Part shown: in pieces, positions 3,093 through 54,131 of the stretch
Layout of the letters: each line of letters begins with the position of its first letter
Position numbering within the stretch: the first letter of the stretch is position 1
Assembly: GCA_051891395.1 (NCBI GenBank)
Contig: JBJFFC010000003.1
Span: 40,300-104,299 of the forward strand
DNA: 64,000 nt
Reading direction: 5' to 3'
Source: Clostridia bacterium
GTDB lineage: Bacteria; Bacillota; Clostridia; TANB77; CAG-508
The notes under the pieces: generated by a model
Database searches by the model: none
What the model saw: only the letters and a program-made list of their open reading frames with translations
What the model was told of the DNA's origin: nothing
Made by a program: the position numbers and the translations under genes

Positions 3093-3134
3093 GCCAAGGG
3101 GCAATTGGGGACGGTTCCTCTTTGCTCCTATTTT
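3091..3134 (+). terminator. Hairpin terminator between convergent genes; loop carries a GGGGACGGTTCC motif
   Basis: gagccaagggg (3091-3101) pairs with cctctttgctc (3117-3127), followed by ctatttt; loop resembles the GGGGACAGGTC repeat core. Confidence 0.45.
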
Positions 3135-5855: not shown

Positions 5856-7223
5856 CTATTTAAAATTTGCTATCAAGTCATATTCACTTACGTCCGTTAT
5901 TCTACATCTTTTAAATTGATTTATAATATTTACTGTTTTATCTATCTTATTGTTTTTAACATAAACAATTCCATCAATTTCTGGAACATCTTGCATGGTT
6001 CTTCCGATGTAATATTTTTTGTCAAAAGAAATATCTTCTATTAAAACTTCATATTCTCTTCCTATCTTCTTTTCAAGATTTTCTCTGGAAATAATTTGTT
6101 GCTTTTGCATTATCTTATTATATCTTGATTTCTTTGTATTTCCATGTATTTGATTTGGCAATTTAGCAGCTGGCGTTCCATCTTCTTTGGAATACGGAAA
6201 AACTCCTAATTTATCAAATTTCGCCCATTCCACAAATTCTAGTAATTCTTCAAACTCCTCCTTGGTTTCTCCGGGAAAGCCAACAATTAAACTTGTTCGT
6301 AAAATAACTTCTGGCATCTTATTTCTAATTCTATTAATTAAATTGATAATATCTTTCTTACTTGTCTTTCTATTCATTTTTTTCAAAATACTATCTGATA
6401 TATGTTGAATTGGTATATCAAAATATTTTGCTATTTTTTTATTATTTGCTACAACTTCTATTAGCTCATCTGTAATTCCTTCTGGATAAGCATATAAAAA
6501 TCGAATCCATTTAATTCCTTCTATTTTGGTTAGCTTTTCTAGTAAATCTGCTAACTTACTTTCTCCATATATGTCGATTCCGTATTTGGTTGTATCTTGT
6601 GCTATTAAAATTAATTCTTTTATTCCTTTTTTACTAAGCTCTTTTGCTTCTTCTAATATTTCTTCTTCTCTTCTACTAACAAAAGGACCTCTTATATAAG
6701 GAATTGCACAATAGGTACAATTATTACTGCAGCCTTCTCCAATTTTTAGGTAAGCAAAATTGGCACCTGTTGTAACTGTTCTGTCTAAAAATTCTTCTTG
6801 CTCAAACATCGGCATTTGTGGAATCTCAGTTATCTTTTTTATCGTTTTCGTTTTTGATTTCTCTACTATATCTCTTTTTATTAAGTCTTCTACTTTGTCC
6901 CATAAATGGTCATATTCATCTATTTTTATGAACAAATTCACTTCTGGAAGTAGCTTTACTAAATCATCATAATATCTTTGCACTAAGCATCCCATTACAA
7001 TTAAATATTTGCATCTCTTTTTCTTATATTCTGCCATTTCTAAAATTGTATTAATTGCTTCTTCTTTAGCTGAATCGATAAAACCACATGTGTTAATTAC
7101 AATGATATCTGCTTTCGACTCCTCATTTACTATTGTAAAATTATTTTTCTTGAATTTCCCAATTGCCGCTTCTGTATCAATTAAATTTTTACTACATCCT
7201 AGTGACACAAATCCTACGTTCAT
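5856..7223 (-). CDS. rimO: Ribosomal protein S12 methylthiotransferase RimO
   Basis: MNVGFVSLGCSKNLIDTE N-terminus, radical-SAM CSNNCTYC, C-terminal TRAM region; start set at Met9 of the ORF behind aggaagga RBS (upstream codons belong to a repeat). Confidence 0.9.
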   Translation of the reverse strand: MNVGFVSLGCSKNLIDTEAAIGKFKKNNFTIVNEESKADIIVINTCGFIDSAKEEAINTILEMAEYKKKRCKYLIVMGCLVQRYYDDLVKLLPEVNLFIKIDEYDHLWDKVEDLIKRDIVEKSKTKTIKKITEIPQMPMFEQEEFLDRTVTTGANFAYLKIGEGCSNNCTYCAIPYIRGPFVSRREEEILEEAKELSKKGIKELILIAQDTTKYGIDIYGESKLADLLEKLTKIEGIKWIRFLYAYPEGITDELIEVVANNKKIAKYFDIPIQHISDSILKKMNRKTSKKDIINLINRIRNKMPEVILRTSLIVGFPGETKEEFEELLEFVEWAKFDKLGVFPYSKEDGTPAAKLPNQIHGNTKKSRYNKIMQKQQIISRENLEKKIGREYEVLIEDISFDKKYYIGRTMQDVPEIDGIVYVKNNKIDKTVNIINQFKRCRITDVSEYDLIANFK

Positions 7224-7239
7224 TTTTTCTTCCTTCCTA

Positions 7240-7357
7240 TGAGACAAGAGGGACAGGTCTTTAAATGTCTCATAATTTTGTCGTCTTTATAAGAAACGTT
7301 TTTCGACATTATTCTACCGTATGTATGGGACATTTAAGACCTGTCCCTCTTGTCTCA
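7240..7357. repeat. Family A 118-bp TIR element (full copy 1)
   Basis: tgagacaagagggacaggtct (7240-7260) and its exact reverse complement agacctgtccctcttgtctca (7337-7357); internal TTTTGTCG / TTTTCGAC motifs; second full copy at 53315-53432. Confidence 0.85.
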
Positions 7358-8452
7358 TTCTTTATGGCTACAAATATGTTTTCTTGTCATTTCCATTAAA
7401 TCCAATTTAGTAAAGCCTTCTACTTGTGTTTTAGTTCTATCCTTTTTTAATTCTTCTTTTAATAAATTCTCTATTGCTTCTCTGTCTTCTTGACTCTTCA
7501 TATCAATATAATCAATAATAATAATTCCGCCAATGTCCCTTAATCTTAATTGTTTTGCAATTTCTACTGTTGCTTCTTGATTCACTTTAAAAACTGTTTG
7601 CTCTAAACTTTTATTTCCTGTGTATTTTCCTGTATTTACATCAATCGCTGTTAATGCCTCTGTCTTATCAATGGTAATAAATCCTCCACATTTAAGCCAT
7701 ATTTTTCTATTTTGTACTTTTTCTATTTGCTTATCAATATCATATTTATGAAAAGCATCTTTTTCTTCTATTATTTTTACTTCTCTTTCTGTTAAATCCA
7801 TTAATATTTTTTCTATAATATCTTCACTTTTATATAGTAATTTCGCTTTGTTAAGTTTAGGATTTATACTTGTTTGAATGATTTTATTCCATTTACCTTC
7901 TATATGTTTTATGTCTTCTATCACTTCTTTATCTTTTCCTTGTGCAGAAGTCCTTATGATTGCTCCATTTCCCTTTGATAGATTATCCTTTACTAGTTTT
8001 ATTAGTCTTTCTTGTTCCTTTTCATCCTCAATCTTTTGAGAAATAGTAATTATATCTGTGTTAGGCATAAGTACAACATATTTACTTGGTAAATTCATAT
8101 GAGTTGATACTCTTGCCCCTTTTTTTTCATTACTATCTTTCTTTACTTGCACTAGGATTTTTTGGTTTGGCTGTATGATATCTGAAATATCAATATTACT
8201 ATCTTGTTGCTCTTTTGTTTGGTCTATTTTGGGTAAAATATCTTTCAAATGTATAAAACTATTCTTTTCTGTGCCAATATCTACAAATGCGGATTGCATT
8301 CCTTTTATAATGTCTTTTACAATCCCAATGTATATATTTCCTTCTCTTCTATGTGTATTTTCATCTTCTTCATAATACTCAATTAATTTTCCATTTTCTA
8401 CTAAAGCTATTTGTTTTTTTTCATCGCTTTTTTGTATTAATAATTCTGTCAT
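7355..8452 (-). CDS. rng: Rne/Rng-family ribonuclease (RNase G-like), apparently C-terminally truncated
   Basis: S1 domain GNIYIGIVKDIIKGMQSAFVDIG, catalytic region ITIDKTEALTAIDVN and IIIIDYIDM; ORF ends at ...MEMTRKHICSHKE with the TGA inside the repeat end. Confidence 0.8.
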   Translation of the reverse strand: MTELLIQKSDEKKQIALVENGKLIEYYEEDENTHRREGNIYIGIVKDIIKGMQSAFVDIGTEKNSFIHLKDILPKIDQTKEQQDSNIDISDIIQPNQKILVQVKKDSNEKKGARVSTHMNLPSKYVVLMPNTDIITISQKIEDEKEQERLIKLVKDNLSKGNGAIIRTSAQGKDKEVIEDIKHIEGKWNKIIQTSINPKLNKAKLLYKSEDIIEKILMDLTEREVKIIEEKDAFHKYDIDKQIEKVQNRKIWLKCGGFITIDKTEALTAIDVNTGKYTGNKSLEQTVFKVNQEATVEIAKQLRLRDIGGIIIIDYIDMKSQEDREAIENLLKEELKKDRTKTQVEGFTKLDLMEMTRKHICSHKE

Positions 8453-28371: not shown

Positions 28372-28599
28372 TTTTTACTGTATTTTAAAAATTGTTACTG
28401 TTCGACTAGACATATTCAAATATTCGTGCGAGAAGAGTTCTATATATTTTTTAAGCGAACTTTTCCGTGGGGACCGCTGAGAGCTGTTAAATGCATTAGC
28501 ATTGTTACAGCTCCAGTGGGAAGAAGTGAGTATAAAAATATATAAACTCTTCGGAAGCATTCGATTTTTATAAAGGCTGCACAGTAACTAAAAATTTTC
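28372..28599. other. Unique ~225-nt rod-like structured element between era and yqzL
   Basis: Nested complementary arms: aaaaattgttactgt / acagtaactaaaaatttt, gaagagttctatatattttt / aaaaatatataaactcttc, acttttcc / ggaagaagt; apical hairpin gagctgttaaatgc-atta-gcattgttacagctc; contains GGGGACCGCTG. Confidence 0.6.
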
Positions 28600-29501: not shown

Positions 29502-29533
29502 ATTTTCCTCCATGTCCAATTGGGGACGTTTCC

Positions 29534-29604
29534 TAATGGACATTTTTAAGTTAGCTGTTAGAGCTTTGCTCGTTACAGATAACTTATGCAGCGGCTGTCC
29601 ATTA
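29534..29604. repeat. Imperfect hairpin next to a CAATTGGGGACGTTTCC motif upstream of era
   Basis: taatggaca...taagttagctgt pairs with acagataactta...tgtccatta; adjacent motif also seen at 3102-3116. Confidence 0.5.
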
Positions 29605-32832: not shown

Positions 32833-32862
32833 CTCTCTCTCCTTTTAAAACATTGAAACATT

Positions 32863-32908
32863 GGGGACAGGTCTAAAATGTCTCATTTTTTTGTCACTTT
32901 TTGTCGTT
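32863..32908. repeat. Family A element, left half only
   Basis: ggggacaggtctaaaatgtctcatttttttgtcactttttgtcgtttt aligns with the left half of the 118-bp element; abuts the fabZ stop. Confidence 0.7.
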
Positions 32909-33334
32909 TTATACGATTGCGAAAGTAAGTTCTCCTTTTACTGCCACTTTTCCATCCACTGTAGCAATTGCCTCTCCAATTCCAATCGGTCCTTTTCTTT
33001 TTATAATTTTCACTTCTAATTTTAGTGTATCACCTGGTATCACTTGTTTCTTAAAACGAAGTTTGTCTATCCCTCCGAATAAAGCATTTTTCCCTTTATT
33101 TTCTTCCATAGAAAGTATCGCAATTGCCCCTGTTTGTGCTAATGATTCTACAATTAATACACCAGGCATAATTGGATTTCCTGGAAAATGTCCTTGAAAG
33201 TAATATTCATTTTCATTAACATGCTTATAAGCAATTGCACTTTCTCCCGGTATGTATTCTTCTACTTCATCTATCATCAAAAATGGTTCTCTTTGCGGAA
33301 TAATTTTCTTAATTCCTTCTTTGTCTAACATCAT
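32909..33334 (-). CDS. fabZ: 3-hydroxyacyl-ACP dehydratase FabZ
   Basis: LMIDEV ... [20 protein letters not shown] hot-dog fold motifs. Confidence 0.95.
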
Positions 33335-35363: not shown

Positions 35364-35453
35364 GCGTTGGGCAACCCCCACCTATCCCAAAAGGTATGTT
35401 TTGGGACAGGTCACCTTTTAACTTTTTCTTCTTAGTTATACAACATTTTACCA

Positions 35454-42209: not shown

Positions 42210-42218
42210 TTATTAATT

Positions 42219-42271
42219 CGACGTTTTTCGACTTTTTTATGAGACATTTAACCACTGTCCCTGTTGTGTCA
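42219..42271. repeat. Family A element, degenerate right half
   Basis: cgacgtttttcgacttttttatgagacatttaaccactgtccctgttgtgtca aligns with the right half of the 118-bp element. Confidence 0.6.
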
Positions 42272-42713
42272 TCCTATTAATTAGATTTGTAAATATCTCT
42301 CTTATTTCTTCTACTATATTTTCTGGTTGTTTAAATACTTCTATTTTGTAAGAATTTTCAAAGTCATTGCTTTTTGCTGGTTTTAATGTATAAATTTCTT
42401 CTGGTAGTCCAATATTTCCTGAGGTGGTTTTTATCTCTTTATTCATATAATCTGTATACCATTTCTTTTGTCCTACTAGAGCTTCGTTTTGGTATCCATA
42501 TTCTTGGTAAGCATGTAACTCTGGTATATCATATCCATATTCTTTGGCGTTTCTTTCTAAAGAATGTAAAAATTCATGTAAAAATACTTCTTCTGGAAAT
42601 TGGTTAATACGTGTATTATATTTATAAATATAACTTTTGGAGTCGTTTGGGAGTCTTATATTTGAAAAACCGATTCCGTAATAATCCATAGAACCGAAGC
42701 CCAATCCAGTCAT
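42237..42713 (-). CDS. HExxH metallopeptidase-like domain (C-terminal fragment of a split gene)
   Basis: HEFLHSLE zinc-binding motif; last 11 codons lie in repeat-derived sequence; no RBS; upstream ORF ends 27 nt away in another frame. Confidence 0.55.
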   Translation of the reverse strand: MTGLGFGSMDYYGIGFSNIRLPNDSKSYIYKYNTRINQFPEEVFLHEFLHSLERNAKEYGYDIPELHAYQEYGYQNEALVGQKKWYTDYMNKEIKTTSGNIGLPEEIYTLKPAKSNDFENSYKIEVFKQPENIVEEIREIFTNLINRMTQQGQWLNVS

Positions 42714-50092: not shown

Positions 50093-53000
50093 TTACTCCA
50101 CACTCTTCAAACTTTCAATCATATCAATTTTCTTCAAAGCAAAATAAGTAACAATATTTACAATCACTGTAAACCCAATCGTTATCAAGACTGCATATAA
50201 ATAGCTTATTGGTCTTATTACCTTAGCAAATCTTAACATATTAATTTCGCAAGTTCCGTATAATAAAATAATTTAAGAAATATCCACCAATTAATCCTAA
50301 TACAATTCCAATACAAGTTAAGATAACCGTTTCTCTTGTTACATAAGAATAAACTTCTTTATCGTAAAATCCTAATACTTTAATAGTTGCAAGTTCTCTA
50401 ATTCTTTCGCTAATATTGACGTTTGATAAGTTATACAATACCACAAAGGCAAGTAGTCCAGCTGATACAATCAATATAATTACCACATAATTTAAAGATT
50501 TCATCGTATCATCTAACATATCCATAGCCGTAGAAATTCTACTGACACTAGCTACTTCACTTTGGTTCATAATTTCCGTCGCCAAGCTTTCTTCTTGTTT
50601 TTCACTTAAATCATTATTTTTGGTAAATAGTACGTTTGTATCATAGGTTTCTCCATATAAGTTTTCATAAGTTGTTTTTGACATATAAACATAATGATAT
50701 ACATAGTTTTCTACTATATTAGAAATTTTTACTTTTCTTTCCCTGTCTTTACTATCTTTTAATGTGATTGTATCGCCTTGTTTAACACCTAATAATTCAG
50801 CAGCTTTATCGGTTAGGCATATTTCATTTTCTTGTAATTCTATCCTTTGGTTTGTTTTTACATCTGCTAGATTAATTATTCCATCCAAGTCATTTTCTTC
50901 TTTTGGTACAATAATTTGTACATCTTCCTTGTTTTCTTGGTTAATTGCTGTATTAGAAGTCACATAAGTTTCTACTACTTTTTCCATTTCTGTTTTTTCT
51001 TGTAGACTAGTAATATATTTTTGTTTTTGTTCTTCTTCTAATCCATTTTTTAGACCTATTTGCATATCATAGTCAAATACCTTTTCAAATTGATTTGGCA
51101 TAATACAGCGAATCGAATCTCGAACACCAAATCCCACTACAATTAATGCCGTACATCCTAGAATTCCGATAATCGTCATTAAAAATCTTTTTTGGTATCG
51201 AAAGATATTTCTGACTGTTACCTTTTGAGAAAAGCTCAAGCGTTTCCAAATAAATGGTATTTTTTCTAGTAGTACTCTTTTTCCCATTTTAGGTGCTTTT
51301 GGTCTCATTAAAGTTGCGGGTGTTTGGACTAGTTCTTTTAAAACTGCATATATGGTTGCACCAATAATGCATACACAAATTAGTAAAAGTCCGATTCCTC
51401 CAATGGATAGGTTGAAACTAATATGTATGTTGTCTGTCATTTGGTACATCATTTGATACATCATCCAAATAATTTTTGGTAACAAAACAAATCCTACACT
51501 CATTCCTAGTATGCCACCTATAATACAAGCTAATCCTGCATAGATAATGTATTTGCTTGCAATTTGTATTTTCTTATACCCTAATGCTTTCAGTGTTCCA
51601 ATTTGGGTTCTTTGTTCTTCCACCATTCTTGTCATAGAAGTTAATGAAATCAGTAATGCTACCATAAAGAATACAATTGGAAATACTTTTGCTATATTTT
51701 CAATACTTCCGGTGTCTTGTATAAAACTATTATATCCTGTATTGCTATAGCGATCTAGAACATACCACGTTGGATTTTCAATATTAGCAATTTCTTCTTT
51801 GGCATCGATTAGTTTTGTTTCTGCCTCCGCTATTTTCTCTTCAAATTCTTTCTGGTTTTGTTCTAGTTCTTTTTCTCCTACCTCTAGGTCTGCTTTGGAT
51901 TTTTCAATCTCTAGTTTTGCACTTTCTAACTGACGATAGGTATTATTTTTTGTTGTCTCATATTGTTTCTCTTTTTGGGCTACTTCGTTTTTGGCATCTT
52001 GCAACTGCGCTTTCGCATTTTCTATTTCTTGTTTCCCTGTTGTTATTCCATTGTTAATTTGTGTAATTCCTGCTTCTATGGTTTGTTTAGATTGTTTTAA
52101 ACTTTGCATTTGGGTTGCTATCGCTTGCTTTTGTTCTTCTGAGAAACTTAAATTATCTTTGATTTGATTATATTGTGTCTCCAGTTGTGTTAAGCTATTC
52201 TCTACAGTCTCTAATTGTGTTTGCAACTCTTGTCTTTGCGTTTCTAATTCAGCAATTTGTTGATTTGTTTCTTGCTCTTTTGTAGCTAATTGTGTTTCGT
52301 TTTCAGCTATTGTTTTTTTTGCTGTTTGAATTTGGTTATAGGCACTTGTAAATTTTGTATCTGCCTCTTTTTTACTATTATTTAACTGGCTTTCTGCTTT
52401 TTCTATTTCGTTTTTTCCATTTTCTATTTCTTGCTTAGCTTCTTCTATTTGTTGTTTTGCTTCTTGTTTTTCATCATTTAATTCTGTTTCTGCCTCTTCT
52501 ACTTTTGCTGTCGCAATATCGACTAATTTATCATGTCTTGCTTGTTCTCTTTCTTCTTTGATAGCTTCTATTTCTTCTTTGACTTCTGCAATATAGTCTT
52601 CATATTTTTCACTAGAAGTTGTATACTTTTCGCTATTTTTTACTTTTATGTACATACCGGTATAGATTTCATTTGCTTTGATATTTTCTTTTGGTATATA
52701 AATATAATAATCAATTTTACCAGAACCTAAACTGCTTGTCCCTCTATCTCTTGAAATATACAAAGGACTTTTTACGGTTCCCACAATTTTTAATTTACTT
52801 TGGTTTAGATATTCAATCTCTTCTCCTTCATCATTTTTGGTATTTTCTATCTCAACTTCAATGGTATCTCCGATTTGTTTATGGTTAGCCGTTAAGAAAC
52901 TTTCTTCTACTACACATTCATCTTGATTTTCAGGCAATTCTCCTTGTAATAGAATCGGCTGATTCAATTCCTCTATACACATAATTTTAGTAATAATTTC

Positions 53001-53300
53001 TTTATTCTCTATCTCCATTTTTCCTTCAATTTCATAGGTTCCCACAATTGTTTCCATGTTGTCTATTTTAGAAATGGCTTCTATGTCATCATTTGTTAGT
53101 CCCAAAGTAGATAGTATTTGAATATCATACACTTGGTTTTCCTTATAGTACTGGTCAATGGTATCCACCATATCTGGCGAAGCTGCTCTCATACCAGCAA
53201 AAAAGCCCACTCCTAAAAAAGCCATTAACAAAATGGATATAAATCGTTTATATGTATTTTTAATTTCTTTTACACTATCTTTTAACAATGCCTTCTTCAT
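50093..53300 (-). pseudogene. FtsX/MacB-type ABC permease with long coiled-coil extracytoplasmic insert, frameshifted near the 3' end
   Basis: Two FtsX 4-TM modules. ORF 50241-53408 stops after ...NYFIIRNLRN, but the +1 frame continues YTGTCEINMLRFAKVIRPISY...KKIDMIESLKSVE to 50093. Span is 3n+1, with an A4 run at 50265-50268. Start set at MKKALLKD (53300). Confidence 0.8.
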
Positions 53301-53314
53301 TTTTTCTCCTCTCA

Positions 53315-53432
53315 TGAGACAAGGGGGACAGGTCTTTTTTGTCCTATATTTTTGTCGTTTTTTGTCATTTTCTTTTTTCGACATATTTCTATCTATTTTA
53401 TGGGACAAAAAAGACCTGTCCCCCTTGTCTCA
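53315..53432. repeat. Family A 118-bp TIR element (full copy 2)
   Basis: tgagacaagggggacaggtct (53315-53335) and agacctgtcccccttgtctca (53412-53432); three T5-6GTC motifs inside; same length and orientation as 7240-7357. Confidence 0.85.
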
Positions 53433-54131
53433 CCATTCGATTTGTTCTACTGGTTCTGGATTCTGGTTTACTTCTATTGCACTAACTGTTCCATTTTTAA
53501 AATGAATTACTTTGTCTGCCATAGGTGCTAATGCTGTGTTGTGGGTAATGATTAATACTGTCATATTTTCTTTTCTGGCTGTATCTTGCAATAATTTTAA
53601 GATTTGTTTTCCTGTTTTATAATCTAAAGCACCTGTTGGCTCATCACATAGTAATAGTTTTGGATTTTTAGCAATCGCTCTTGCAATTGCCACTCTTTGT
53701 TGTTCTCCTCCTGATAATTGAGATGGAAAATTATTCATTCTATCTTTTAATCCTACTTTTTCAATTACTTCTTCAGGATTTAATGAATCTTTACAAATTT
53801 GTGTGGCAAGTTCTACATTTTCTTTCGCTGTTAAGTTTTGTACTAAATTATAAAATTGAAATACAAATCCTATGTCTTCTCTTCGGTATTTGATTAATTC
53901 TTTGTTTTTTAATCTAGTAACTTCTTTACCATCTACCATTACCTTTCCTGAAGTGGCTGTATCCATTCCTCCTAGAATATTTAGCGTTGTAGTTTTACCA
54001 GCTCCTGATGGTCCTACAATAACCACTAATTCTCCCTTTTCGATTTGAAAGTTGGTATTATCTAGAGCTTTGATAATTATCTCTCCCATTTTATATTCTT
54101 TACATACGTTTTTAAATTCGATATATGACAT
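53430..54131 (-). CDS. ABC transporter ATP-binding protein (MacB/LolD-like partner of the FtsX permease)
   Basis: [34 protein letters not shown]; stop codon TGA lies in the repeat end. Confidence 0.92.

Follow-up and report, generated by a model that had tools for sequence, protein, structure and literature searches.

A REPIN-like hairpin doublet at operon junctions of a gut Clostridium genome and its probable TIRYT-type transposase

Introduction

A 64,000-nucleotide stretch of the genome of an uncultured gut Clostridium (hereafter the window; C3:40300-104299 of the 1.54-Mb, 49-contig, 28% GC assembly G000) carries at positions 7240-7357 a 118-bp inverted-repeat element between the stop codon of one gene and the ribosome-binding site (RBS) of the next. 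The locus raises two questions, namely what kind of element this is and why it sits so exactly between two cistrons. A first-pass annotation of the window had described it as a miniature inverted-repeat transposable element (MITE) or a repetitive extragenic palindromic (REP)-type element specialised for intercistronic sites. Our comparative sequence analysis suggests that it is, with high probability, a non-autonomous, non-coding REPIN-like doublet ("TIR dimer", from terminal inverted repeat) of a single-copy TIRYT-type Y1/HUH transposase. Coordinates without a contig prefix refer to the window.

Results

A genome-wide family of heterodimeric doublets

The 21-nt ends of the element (copy 1; TGAGACAAGAGGGACAGGTCT) are perfect reverse complements, and inward pairing beyond them extends over 26 nt at 96% plus 14 nt at 93%, giving a total of ~34 bp. 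Allowing up to 3 mismatches, the 21-mer occurred four times in the window and not once in 100 shuffles. The four occurrences are both arms of copy 1 and both arms of a second 118-bp copy at 53315-53432, which has the same orientation and carries a compensatory A>G change in both arms. The length, the perfect 21-bp TIRs and the second copy all agree with the first-pass annotation, which had put the pairing at ~33 bp.

A profile built from the arms and searched over the whole genome with nhmmer (E<1e-4) retrieved 65 units of this family (family A), so that many copies lie beyond the window. They are arranged as 23-24 doublets, 108-158 bp in length, with about 17 left as singlets. The only units in the window besides the two doublets are singlets at 32854-32907 (+) and 42216-42271 (-), close to the positions at which two half copies had been annotated. 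In contrast, four short GGGGAC(A/G)G(G/T)T matches that had been taken for relatives do not belong to the family. Two of them (3102-3116 and 29520-29533) are part of a different repeat family (CAATTGGGGACG[G/T]TTCC...) that flanks a second, paralogous transposase gene, and the other two (28467-28478 and 35403-35412) are isolated short matches with no wider similarity that look like chance.

Read from its outer end, the ~55-nt unit consists of TGAGACA - N3 - GGGACAG - N3 - TWAAA - TGTCTCA - T - ~8 nt - GT[A/C]G - 6 nt - GTCG; its GT[A/C]G motifs are 8-9 nt and ~19 nt into the arm. Of the 65 units, 64 contain GGGACAG, 54 have TGA as the outer triplet, 42 carry AGGGACAG, and 20 carry the full GGGGACAG. 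The doublets are heterodimers, in which one arm goes on as CATAAATTAGGTAGAAAAATGTCGAAAA (A-type) and the other as CATATTTTTGTCGTTTTTTGTCG (T-type), so that the whole interior of a doublet is A-rich on one strand.

Two members of the family have unusual surroundings. Directly 5' of the doublet C5:12995-13123 lies a 12-nt partial tandem copy of the element terminus (C5:12983-12994; TGAGACAAGGGG), which may be the footprint of an aborted or repeated insertion. The doublet C2:19769-19897 (locus L097) has the RBS of a glycyl-tRNA synthetase gene on one side and, on the other, a terminator-like hairpin that a T-box-like GGGTGGAAACGCGG motif precedes; it thus probably sits inside a leader. Rfam reported no T-box at the latter locus at the gathering threshold, and the sole Rfam match over this locus and the transposase loci was a partial tRNA at a contig end.

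Hairpin structure and covariation of the arms

The RNA sense strand of copy 1 with its flanks folded at -55.9 kcal/mol (z -9.0), in keeping with the hairpin that had been anticipated for the polycistronic mRNA, at ~34 rather than ~33 bp. As DNA, the strands of copy 1 reached -33.9 and -35.6 kcal/mol (z -10 and -11) and those of copy 2 -36.0 and -36.7 kcal/mol; either strand of both copies formed one long hairpin, with energies of -34 to -37 kcal/mol and z from -10 to -14. An Rfam 15 covariance-model search of the element at a permissive E-value returned only chance-level matches (best E 0.76).

Covariation was assessed on an alignment of 18 doublets with a 34-pair hairpin. Standard pairs made up 93% of the alignment, compared to 33-55% when the partner column was slid by 1-3 positions, and 14 of the 34 pairs were changed on both sides (56 cells). 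The covariation score was 0.272 vs 0.096 in shuffles, and none of 500 shuffles reached it. Both the variable triplets (positions 8-10 and 18-20) and the AT stretch (21-25) match within a doublet while differing from one doublet to the next, so that the arms are kept complementary, through selection acting on the folded single strand or through arm-to-arm correction.

An alternative fold, an intra-unit stem pairing TGAGACA with TGTCTCA around a GGGACAG loop, was rejected: its positions are nearly invariant and lend it no covariation support. What little change there is at position 29 disrupts this stem, and in one doublet (C49) it has its counterpart in the partner arm.

A Y1/HUH transposase bracketed by the same units

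A search for a full-length insertion sequence (IS) with the same ends had been recommended. A larger unit with these ends does exist, although it carries a Y1/HUH gene and no DDE transposase: at C34:14620-15562, two inverted units, 943 bp apart from outer end to outer end, enclose a single open reading frame (ORF; C34:14758-15507, 249 aa, TTG start, beginning MPRQSR...). Between the left unit and this gene there is a sigma-70-like promoter (TTGAAT-17-TATAAT). On visual inspection, the ORF contains no CGG codon in frame. The product matched Pfam Y1_Tnp (4.7e-11), and its best NCBIfam model was REP_Tyr_transpos (REP-associated tyrosine transposase, NF047646); the IS200-type TnpA model (transpos_IS200, NF033573) gave 26.6 bits against a cut-off of 55. 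Residues 210-248 matched the helix-turn-helix (HTH) models HTH_Tnp_1_2 (7.8e-6), HTH_7, HTH_23, and HTH_28 (1e-4 range). The best match in the Protein Data Bank was E. coli TnpA-REP (4ER8), a weak alignment of 18 bits that places HVH, the HUH motif, opposite HMH and the tyrosine helix YIHMNPVKAG opposite YIYINPVKHG. The transposase is single-copy in the genome, apart from one 35%-identical paralog at C3:190475-191259.

The cassette flanks read TAGGGACAG and AAGGGACAG, so the first G of the motif is not fixed. The right end of the cassette (C34:15542-15562) reads ...TGTTCTA, and TCYTA in five related species (L001-L005), vs ...TGTCTCA in the doublets. If ...TCA is the cleavage site, this altered end would explain why the gene stays in a fixed synteny.

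Several results weigh against assigning the doublets to this transposase. The cassette ORF falls short of the REP_Tyr_transpos cut-off (70.5 vs 80 bits), and all of its HTH matches lie slightly below the Pfam cut-offs. A single unit folds weakly as DNA (-7.6 and -1.6 kcal/mol, z -2.2 and 0), unlike classical REPs, which suggests that the working structure is the doublet hairpin and not a REP-like stem-loop in each unit. The simplest derivation, a doublet as the cassette minus its gene, had to be rejected, since the cassette flanks are both T-type and unlike each other (TGC vs GTC after GGGACAG), whereas doublets pair an A-type with a T-type unit and have matching arms.

The architecture could also be that of an ordinary MITE of a DDE-type IS, whose TG...CA ends would be read as double-stranded TIRs by an IS3/IS481-like transposase; the ends do start with TG and finish with CA, and the length and TIR arrangement are MITE-like. 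We consider this highly improbable. No direct repeats that would mark a target-site duplication were found at 24 doublets, the sole larger genomic unit with these ends is the Y1 cassette, the distribution of the repeat tracks the Y1 gene, and covariation of the hairpin arms is not required by a transposase that binds double-stranded DNA. The earlier MITE or REP-type description therefore stands as regards a non-autonomous, intercistronic, REP-type hairpin, but its probable parent is a Y1/HUH gene and no DDE-type IS.

Distribution among relatives and element-free sites

Orthologues of the transposase with 51-90% identity were found in metagenome-assembled genomes (MAGs) of uncultured gut Clostridium and in Clostridium sp. 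CAG:343, all of them between the same helicase-like and comF-like genes (L001-L006). Each orthologue has a recognisable unit on one side at least, and L001-L004 have it on both. Homologues of lower identity (29-39%) are bordered by other inverted repeats, whose cores are GGGGAC or GGGGTCAGG.

Among 121 genomes of the order, the unit pattern occurred in two, G000 (43 matches) and the congener G087 (54 matches); it was absent from the 19 other congeners sampled, and a control pattern had no match in the 121 genomes. G087 is also the sole genome of this set with a transposase more than 47% identical to that of G000 (54%), and its gene is bracketed by pattern matches. Distant homologues (up to 47% identity) are present in 42 other genomes, none of which has the family A repeat. 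Taken together, these data indicate that the repeat family and this transposase clade go together.

The orthologous junctions, whose comparison the first-pass annotation had recommended, revealed many element-free sites. At the RNase G/rimO junction, five congeners (G011, G007, G002, G013, and G012) have 12-22 nt between stop and start and no element. Queries made of the joined flanks of 18 further doublets recovered element-free orthologous sites in congeners for 16 of them, and such sites are available for 17 loci in total, including the rimO and ABC loci. The presence or absence of insertions at orthologous sites indicates that the element is mobile on an evolutionary scale, and species-specific insertions of this kind are expected of a mobile element and not of conserved regulatory sites.

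Other repeats occupy some of the same junctions. At RNase G/rimO, G006 (L036) and G010 (L035) hold different hairpin repeats, the one in G006 having perfect arms of ~36 nt (GGAAAAGCGGGATTAGGGGACGGGGCTTAAAATCCCT), and at the ABC/FtsX junction G007 (L064) carries a doublet resembling a second repeat family described below. Judging from these sequences, the same operon junctions appear to have been colonised recurrently and independently by different hairpin repeats.

Orientation and placement between cistrons

The elements of family A in the window and the genes that surround the two doublets are as follows.

7240..7357, minus strand: full doublet, copy 1; this is the sense strand of both neighbouring genes
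Copy 1, start of the sense strand: TGAGACA-AGA-GGGACAG-GTC-TTAAA-TGTCCCA, then an A-rich interior with GTAG/GTCG/CGAC
Copy 1, end of the sense strand: TGAGACA-TTTAAA-GAC-CTGTCCC-TCT-TGTCTCA
7302..7357, minus strand: A-type unit of copy 1, its 5' half in mRNA sense (nhmmer, C3:47601-47656, E 1.8e-14)
7240..7287, plus strand: T-type unit of copy 1, its 3' half in mRNA sense (nhmmer, C3:47539-47586, E 4.8e-12)
7355..7357, minus strand: TGA, the outermost three bases of copy 1 and the sole in-frame stop at the end of the upstream ORF
7355..8452, minus strand: RNase E/G-family ORF upstream of copy 1 (365 aa as listed; Pfam RNase_E_G, 1e-78)
5856..7223, minus strand: RimO/MiaB-type methylthiotransferase downstream of copy 1 (Pfam UPF0004, Radical_SAM, and TRAM_2)
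53315..53432, minus strand: full doublet, copy 2, in the same orientation relative to its genes
53430..54131, minus strand: ABC-transporter ATPase gene upstream of copy 2, with the terminal TGA of copy 2 as its stop
50241..53300, minus strand: FtsX/MacB-type permease gene downstream of copy 2
32854..32907, plus strand: T-type singlet (nhmmer, E 1.1e-10)
42216..42271, minus strand: A-type singlet (nhmmer, E 2.5e-9)

Both doublets separate co-directional minus-strand genes, the RNase E/G-family ORF from the RimO/MiaB-type gene and the ABC ATPase from the FtsX/MacB-type permease. In copy 1, the A-type unit comprises the outer TGAGACA and the invariant GGGACAG followed by CATACATACGGTAGAATAATGTCGAAAA; the T-type unit, read from its outer end, has the same arm followed by CATAATTTTGTCGTCTTT. 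As had been annotated, the left end stops 16 nt before the ATG of the RimO/MiaB-type gene (at 7223) and spares its RBS (GGAAGGAAG, within 7226-7239). The permease ATG (53300) is 14 nt from the end of copy 2, with GAGGAG in between. The outer end of the singlet 32854-32907 is 21 nt from the ATG (32832) of the next minus-strand gene, and its inner end adjoins the TAA (32909-32911) of the upstream minus-strand gene. At the singlet 42216-42271, an upstream 158-aa ORF (42237..42713, minus strand) runs 11 codons into the unit and ends at an internal TAA. Its tail (..MTQQGQWLNVS before the stop) is read from the singlet, so that repeat-encoded C-terminal tails do exist in this genome.

Across the genome, the A-rich strand was the sense strand of both flanking genes in all 22 scorable doublets. 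The 5' triplet is the sole stop of the upstream ORF in about 12 doublets, in 4 more the upstream ORF stops at a TAG of the variable triplet (positions 8-11), and in most of the remainder the upstream ORF has its own stop 0-22 nt 5' of the element. In about 17 doublets the 3' end directly adjoins a purine-rich RBS (TGTCTCA followed by AAAGGAG), with the ATG 13-30 nt further on. The singlets mostly follow the same rule, A-type units lying at the stop side and T-type units at the RBS side. G087 provided a looser replicate, with 6 consistent, 1 opposite, and 3 ambiguous cases and with several copies not beside an RBS. Only two doublets run against the regional majority strand (C25:17404 and C28:3809), and both still follow their own flanking genes. 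Local GC skew (about +/-0.2) tracks the coding strand, so that it is confounded as a means of telling replication from transcription behind the orientation rule.

Selection might likewise have produced the fixed orientation, given that a reversed T-type arm resembles an intrinsic terminator, and this is a further point against explaining the pattern by the transposase. In antisense reading, the T-type arm scored as an intrinsic terminator at the right flank of the cassette and at copy 2, whereas the sense strand scored at neither window copy and copy 1 scored on neither strand. One might accordingly view the element as a non-mobile bidirectional or antisense terminator, or another purely structural palindrome of local origin: terminator-like sites are called within the T-type arm, on the antisense strand of the genes, and on that strand a T-run often follows the full hairpin. 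Such an origin is barely tenable. Neither window copy presents a hairpin plus U-tract on the sense strand, the copies lie within operons a mere 13-30 nt before the next start, the 65 units at unrelated loci share one core (GGGACAG in 64, TGA in 54), and local origin would leave the link with the transposase unexplained. Along with the DDE-type MITE and terminator readings, we rejected an attC-like one.

The same placement could reflect a host-selected RNA element, a hairpin kept for a job in the operon transcript, with mobility secondary; it might act as an RNase III processing site, as a stabiliser of the upstream 3' end, or as an uncoupler or tuner of translation between cistrons. The strict orientation to transcription (22/22), to which the doublets C25:17404 and C28:3809 conform against their regional strand, the strong RNA helix in a genome that encodes RNase III, the RBS that is always spared, and the co-varying arms are all in keeping with such a role. 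We nevertheless regard it as unlikely. The orthologous junctions of most congeners work without the element; the flanking genes are functionally unrelated (RNase G/rimO, ABC ATPase/permease, spoIIIA-like small genes, and a glycyl-tRNA synthetase leader); the repeat is present all-or-none with one transposase clade; and several copies in G087 are not beside an RBS. Moreover, a likely effect on mRNA does not equal a selected function.

The stop codon as gift or target

The first-pass annotation held that the element supplies the TGA of the upstream RNase gene. The TCA at 7355-7357 is indeed the stop of the RNase E/G-family ORF on the minus strand, but the triplet may either have been brought by the element or have been there already. 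We compared G000, with the element removed, to element-free relatives (~20% diverged) at 17 loci. At 14 of them the relatives carry T-R-R (R, purine) exactly at the position of the first triplet of the element; in G011, for instance, the element-free rimO site has TAG at the same codon position as the TGA of copy 1. At about 9 of the 17 loci G000 has no other upstream stop, and together with the T-R-R at the insertion point this implies that insertion left the ORF length unchanged. The triplet of the relatives is a TGA followed by A-rich sequence at 5 loci, and at 4 of these (C21:22721, C21:109017, C26:13692, and C3:106242) it is out of frame, for which a rough estimate from base composition gives a chance of ~2% per site. 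The prior presence of T-R-R in element-free congeners suggests that the triplet may be a target rather than a gift, and we lean slightly towards T-R-R/TGA as the insertion target.

Other observations speak against this targeting step. The stop of the relatives is TAA or TAG, not TGA, at 8-9 loci, and TGA is the rarest stop in the genome (184 of 1264 long ORFs, 15%). TGA is conserved in 27 of 31 arms at the RBS side and in 20 of 25 at the stop side, so that the triplet could be element-borne. A second stop 3' of both window copies (TAG and TGA) fits insertion before the old stop equally well. Three positions of the cut were compared at the 17 loci. Neither a cut before the old stop nor one after T or T-R-R accounts for every locus, and the cut after T-R-R accounts for most; the termini are redundant with the target, which hides the exact insertion cut.

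A possible mechanism and its consequences

The transposase may act in trans on the single-stranded folded element, as the IS200/IS605 enzymes and E. coli TnpA-REP do. Insertion would take place, with no duplication of the target, at a T-R-R (TGA by preference) that precedes A-rich sequence; in this genome such a site would typically be a stop codon with the Shine-Dalgarno leader after it. The left TGA would then represent the flank-side cleavage or target triplet and the right ...TCA the element-side cleavage site, with GACA...TGTCTCA pasted 3' of TGA in the target strand in an IS608-like manner. Such a model would explain the single orientation, the lack of target duplication, the conserved terminal triplets, the constant ORF length, and the preserved RBS.

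In its strictest form, the element would be an operon-junction-specific transposon, whose Y1 enzyme inserts the folded strand directly after a stop-like triplet, usually TGA and more rarely TAA or TAG, and before an A-rich Shine-Dalgarno leader. We put this forward only tentatively. With the host stop codon as the left cleavage or target site and the ...TCA of the element as the right one, the orientation would be fixed and ORF length and RBS preserved, amounting to a "safe harbour" rule in a compact genome; as a corollary, hairpin-templated correction that keeps the arms identical would convert TAA and TAG targets to TGA.

Once inserted, the REPIN-like doublet would be co-transcribed and would place a ~34-bp perfect helix, a plausible RNase III substrate, between the cistrons. 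RNase III is encoded in the genome, which makes cleavage or 3'-end protection of the upstream message and a loss of translational coupling plausible. We infer that any such effect on the mRNA is a consequence of insertion and not the reason for the existence of the element.

Comparison with known systems

Transcribed MITE and REP elements are familiar from other bacteria. Correia/NEMIS of Neisseria, ERIC of Yersinia, RUP and BOX of pneumococcus, and REP/BIME of E. coli lie beside coding regions and are co-transcribed, and their helices may be cleaved by RNase III or shield the mRNA upstream of them. DDE-type parents or TA duplications are features of Correia, ERIC, and RUP. We know of no such element that sits so regularly on a stop codon in a single orientation.

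Among described systems, the REPIN/RAYT-like TIRYT/TIRtron (TnpA-Y1 subclass 2.1) comes closest, and every TIRYT feature that we looked for was present. RAYT-like TIRYT genes were described with long TIRs carrying GGGGWSAS, which also occur in dispersed form, singly or as dimers (Di Nocera, De Gregorio & Rocco 2013, PMC3733652). The classification of Quentin et al. (2018, PMC6006769) assigned 20 of the 26 TIRYTs to TnpA-Y1 subclass 2.1, the defining trait of which is a C-terminal HTH (Bac_DnaA_C, HTH_23, or HTH_28). The present system likewise combines a RAYT-like Y1/HUH core with a C-terminal HTH (residues 210-248), inverted repeats around the gene with [A/G]GGGACAG in the place of GGGGWSAS, and repeats dispersed as singles and dimers in moderate numbers. 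The first-pass annotation had allowed that the ends might match a known family, and to the extent that they carry the GGGGWSAS of described TIRYT repeats they do so in part. Differences exist as well. The described cases are mainly from Proteobacteria and Acidobacteria, whereas the present one is from a small-genome gut Clostridia. Quentin et al. reported that no REP-like sequences were found beside the genes of subclass 2.1 (PMC6006769), while the link with a repeat is clear here. Fixed orientation, placement at stop codon and RBS, and A-type/T-type heterodimer arms do not, to our knowledge, figure in the descriptions of these repeats in PMC3733652 or PMC6006769.

REPIN-RAYT systems are known from Pseudomonas, Enterobacteria, and Neisseria (Bertels & Rainey 2011, PMC3116915; Bertels et al. 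2017, PMC5581495). Shared with them are two inverted units with a variable spacer, ~100-130 bp long (108-158 bp here), that form one long hairpin; a transposase present once, inherited vertically, and bracketed by these units; co-occurrence of repeats and gene; extragenic sites; and singlets that resemble decayed doublets. In contrast, RAYTs of groups 2 and 3 are short (~150-190 aa) and lack an HTH, the equivalog cut-off is missed here (NF047646, 70.5 vs 80), the classical REP unit is a stable GTAG- (or CGTC-) tagged stem-loop whereas the present unit is weak alone, and the copy number is in the tens, not the hundreds.

With IS200/IS605 (IS608 and ISDra2) and the miniature, palindrome-associated derivatives of that family the system has in common a Y1/HUH enzyme and no target duplication, and strand- and orientation-specific insertion at a short target is the best-fitting model for the TGA and ...TCA ends and the single orientation. 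It differs in that IS200-type TnpA is usually multi-copy, whereas the present gene is single-copy, in fixed synteny, and scores 26.6 bits vs 55. The element here is, furthermore, one long hairpin and not two subterminal hairpins.

A second transposase-repeat pair

The paralog at C3:190475-191259, outside the window, encodes a 262-aa Y1/RAYT-like protein with a C-terminal HTH, 35% identical to the C34 transposase. It is flanked by inverted CAATTGGGGACGTTTCC-TTTTGGACA-..-TGTCCA-..-TGGGACAC units, of which about 28 are dispersed in the genome, including two in the window at about 3097-3125 and 29511-29545. Several of these units are fused to a module TTTTTAAGTTAGCTGTTAGAGCTTTGCTCGTTACAGATA. The paralog and its own repeat family indicate that the genome holds two transposase-repeat pairs.

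Discussion

The regular placement at stop codon and RBS, the single orientation, and the concerted arms are the most noteworthy features of family A, and the novelty of the system is moderate. REPIN/RAYT biology has been worked out almost wholly in Proteobacteria, and the HTH-bearing TIRYT branch has been described but barely studied. The present genome offers a clean small system, with one transposase, about 24 doublets, an all-or-none link to the gene over 121 genomes, and 17 element-free reference sites that allow the target rule to be deduced.

Gene callers will be confused by the stop and start codons and the short C-terminal tails within the repeat, and the hairpins will break short-read assemblies of gut MAGs of this kind. 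If targeting to the stop codon and RBS is true, it would show how a 1.5-Mb genome whose intergenic spacers measure 10-25 nt can go on harbouring a mobile element that leaves the operons unbroken, and it would provide a testable sequence rule for a Y1 transposase.

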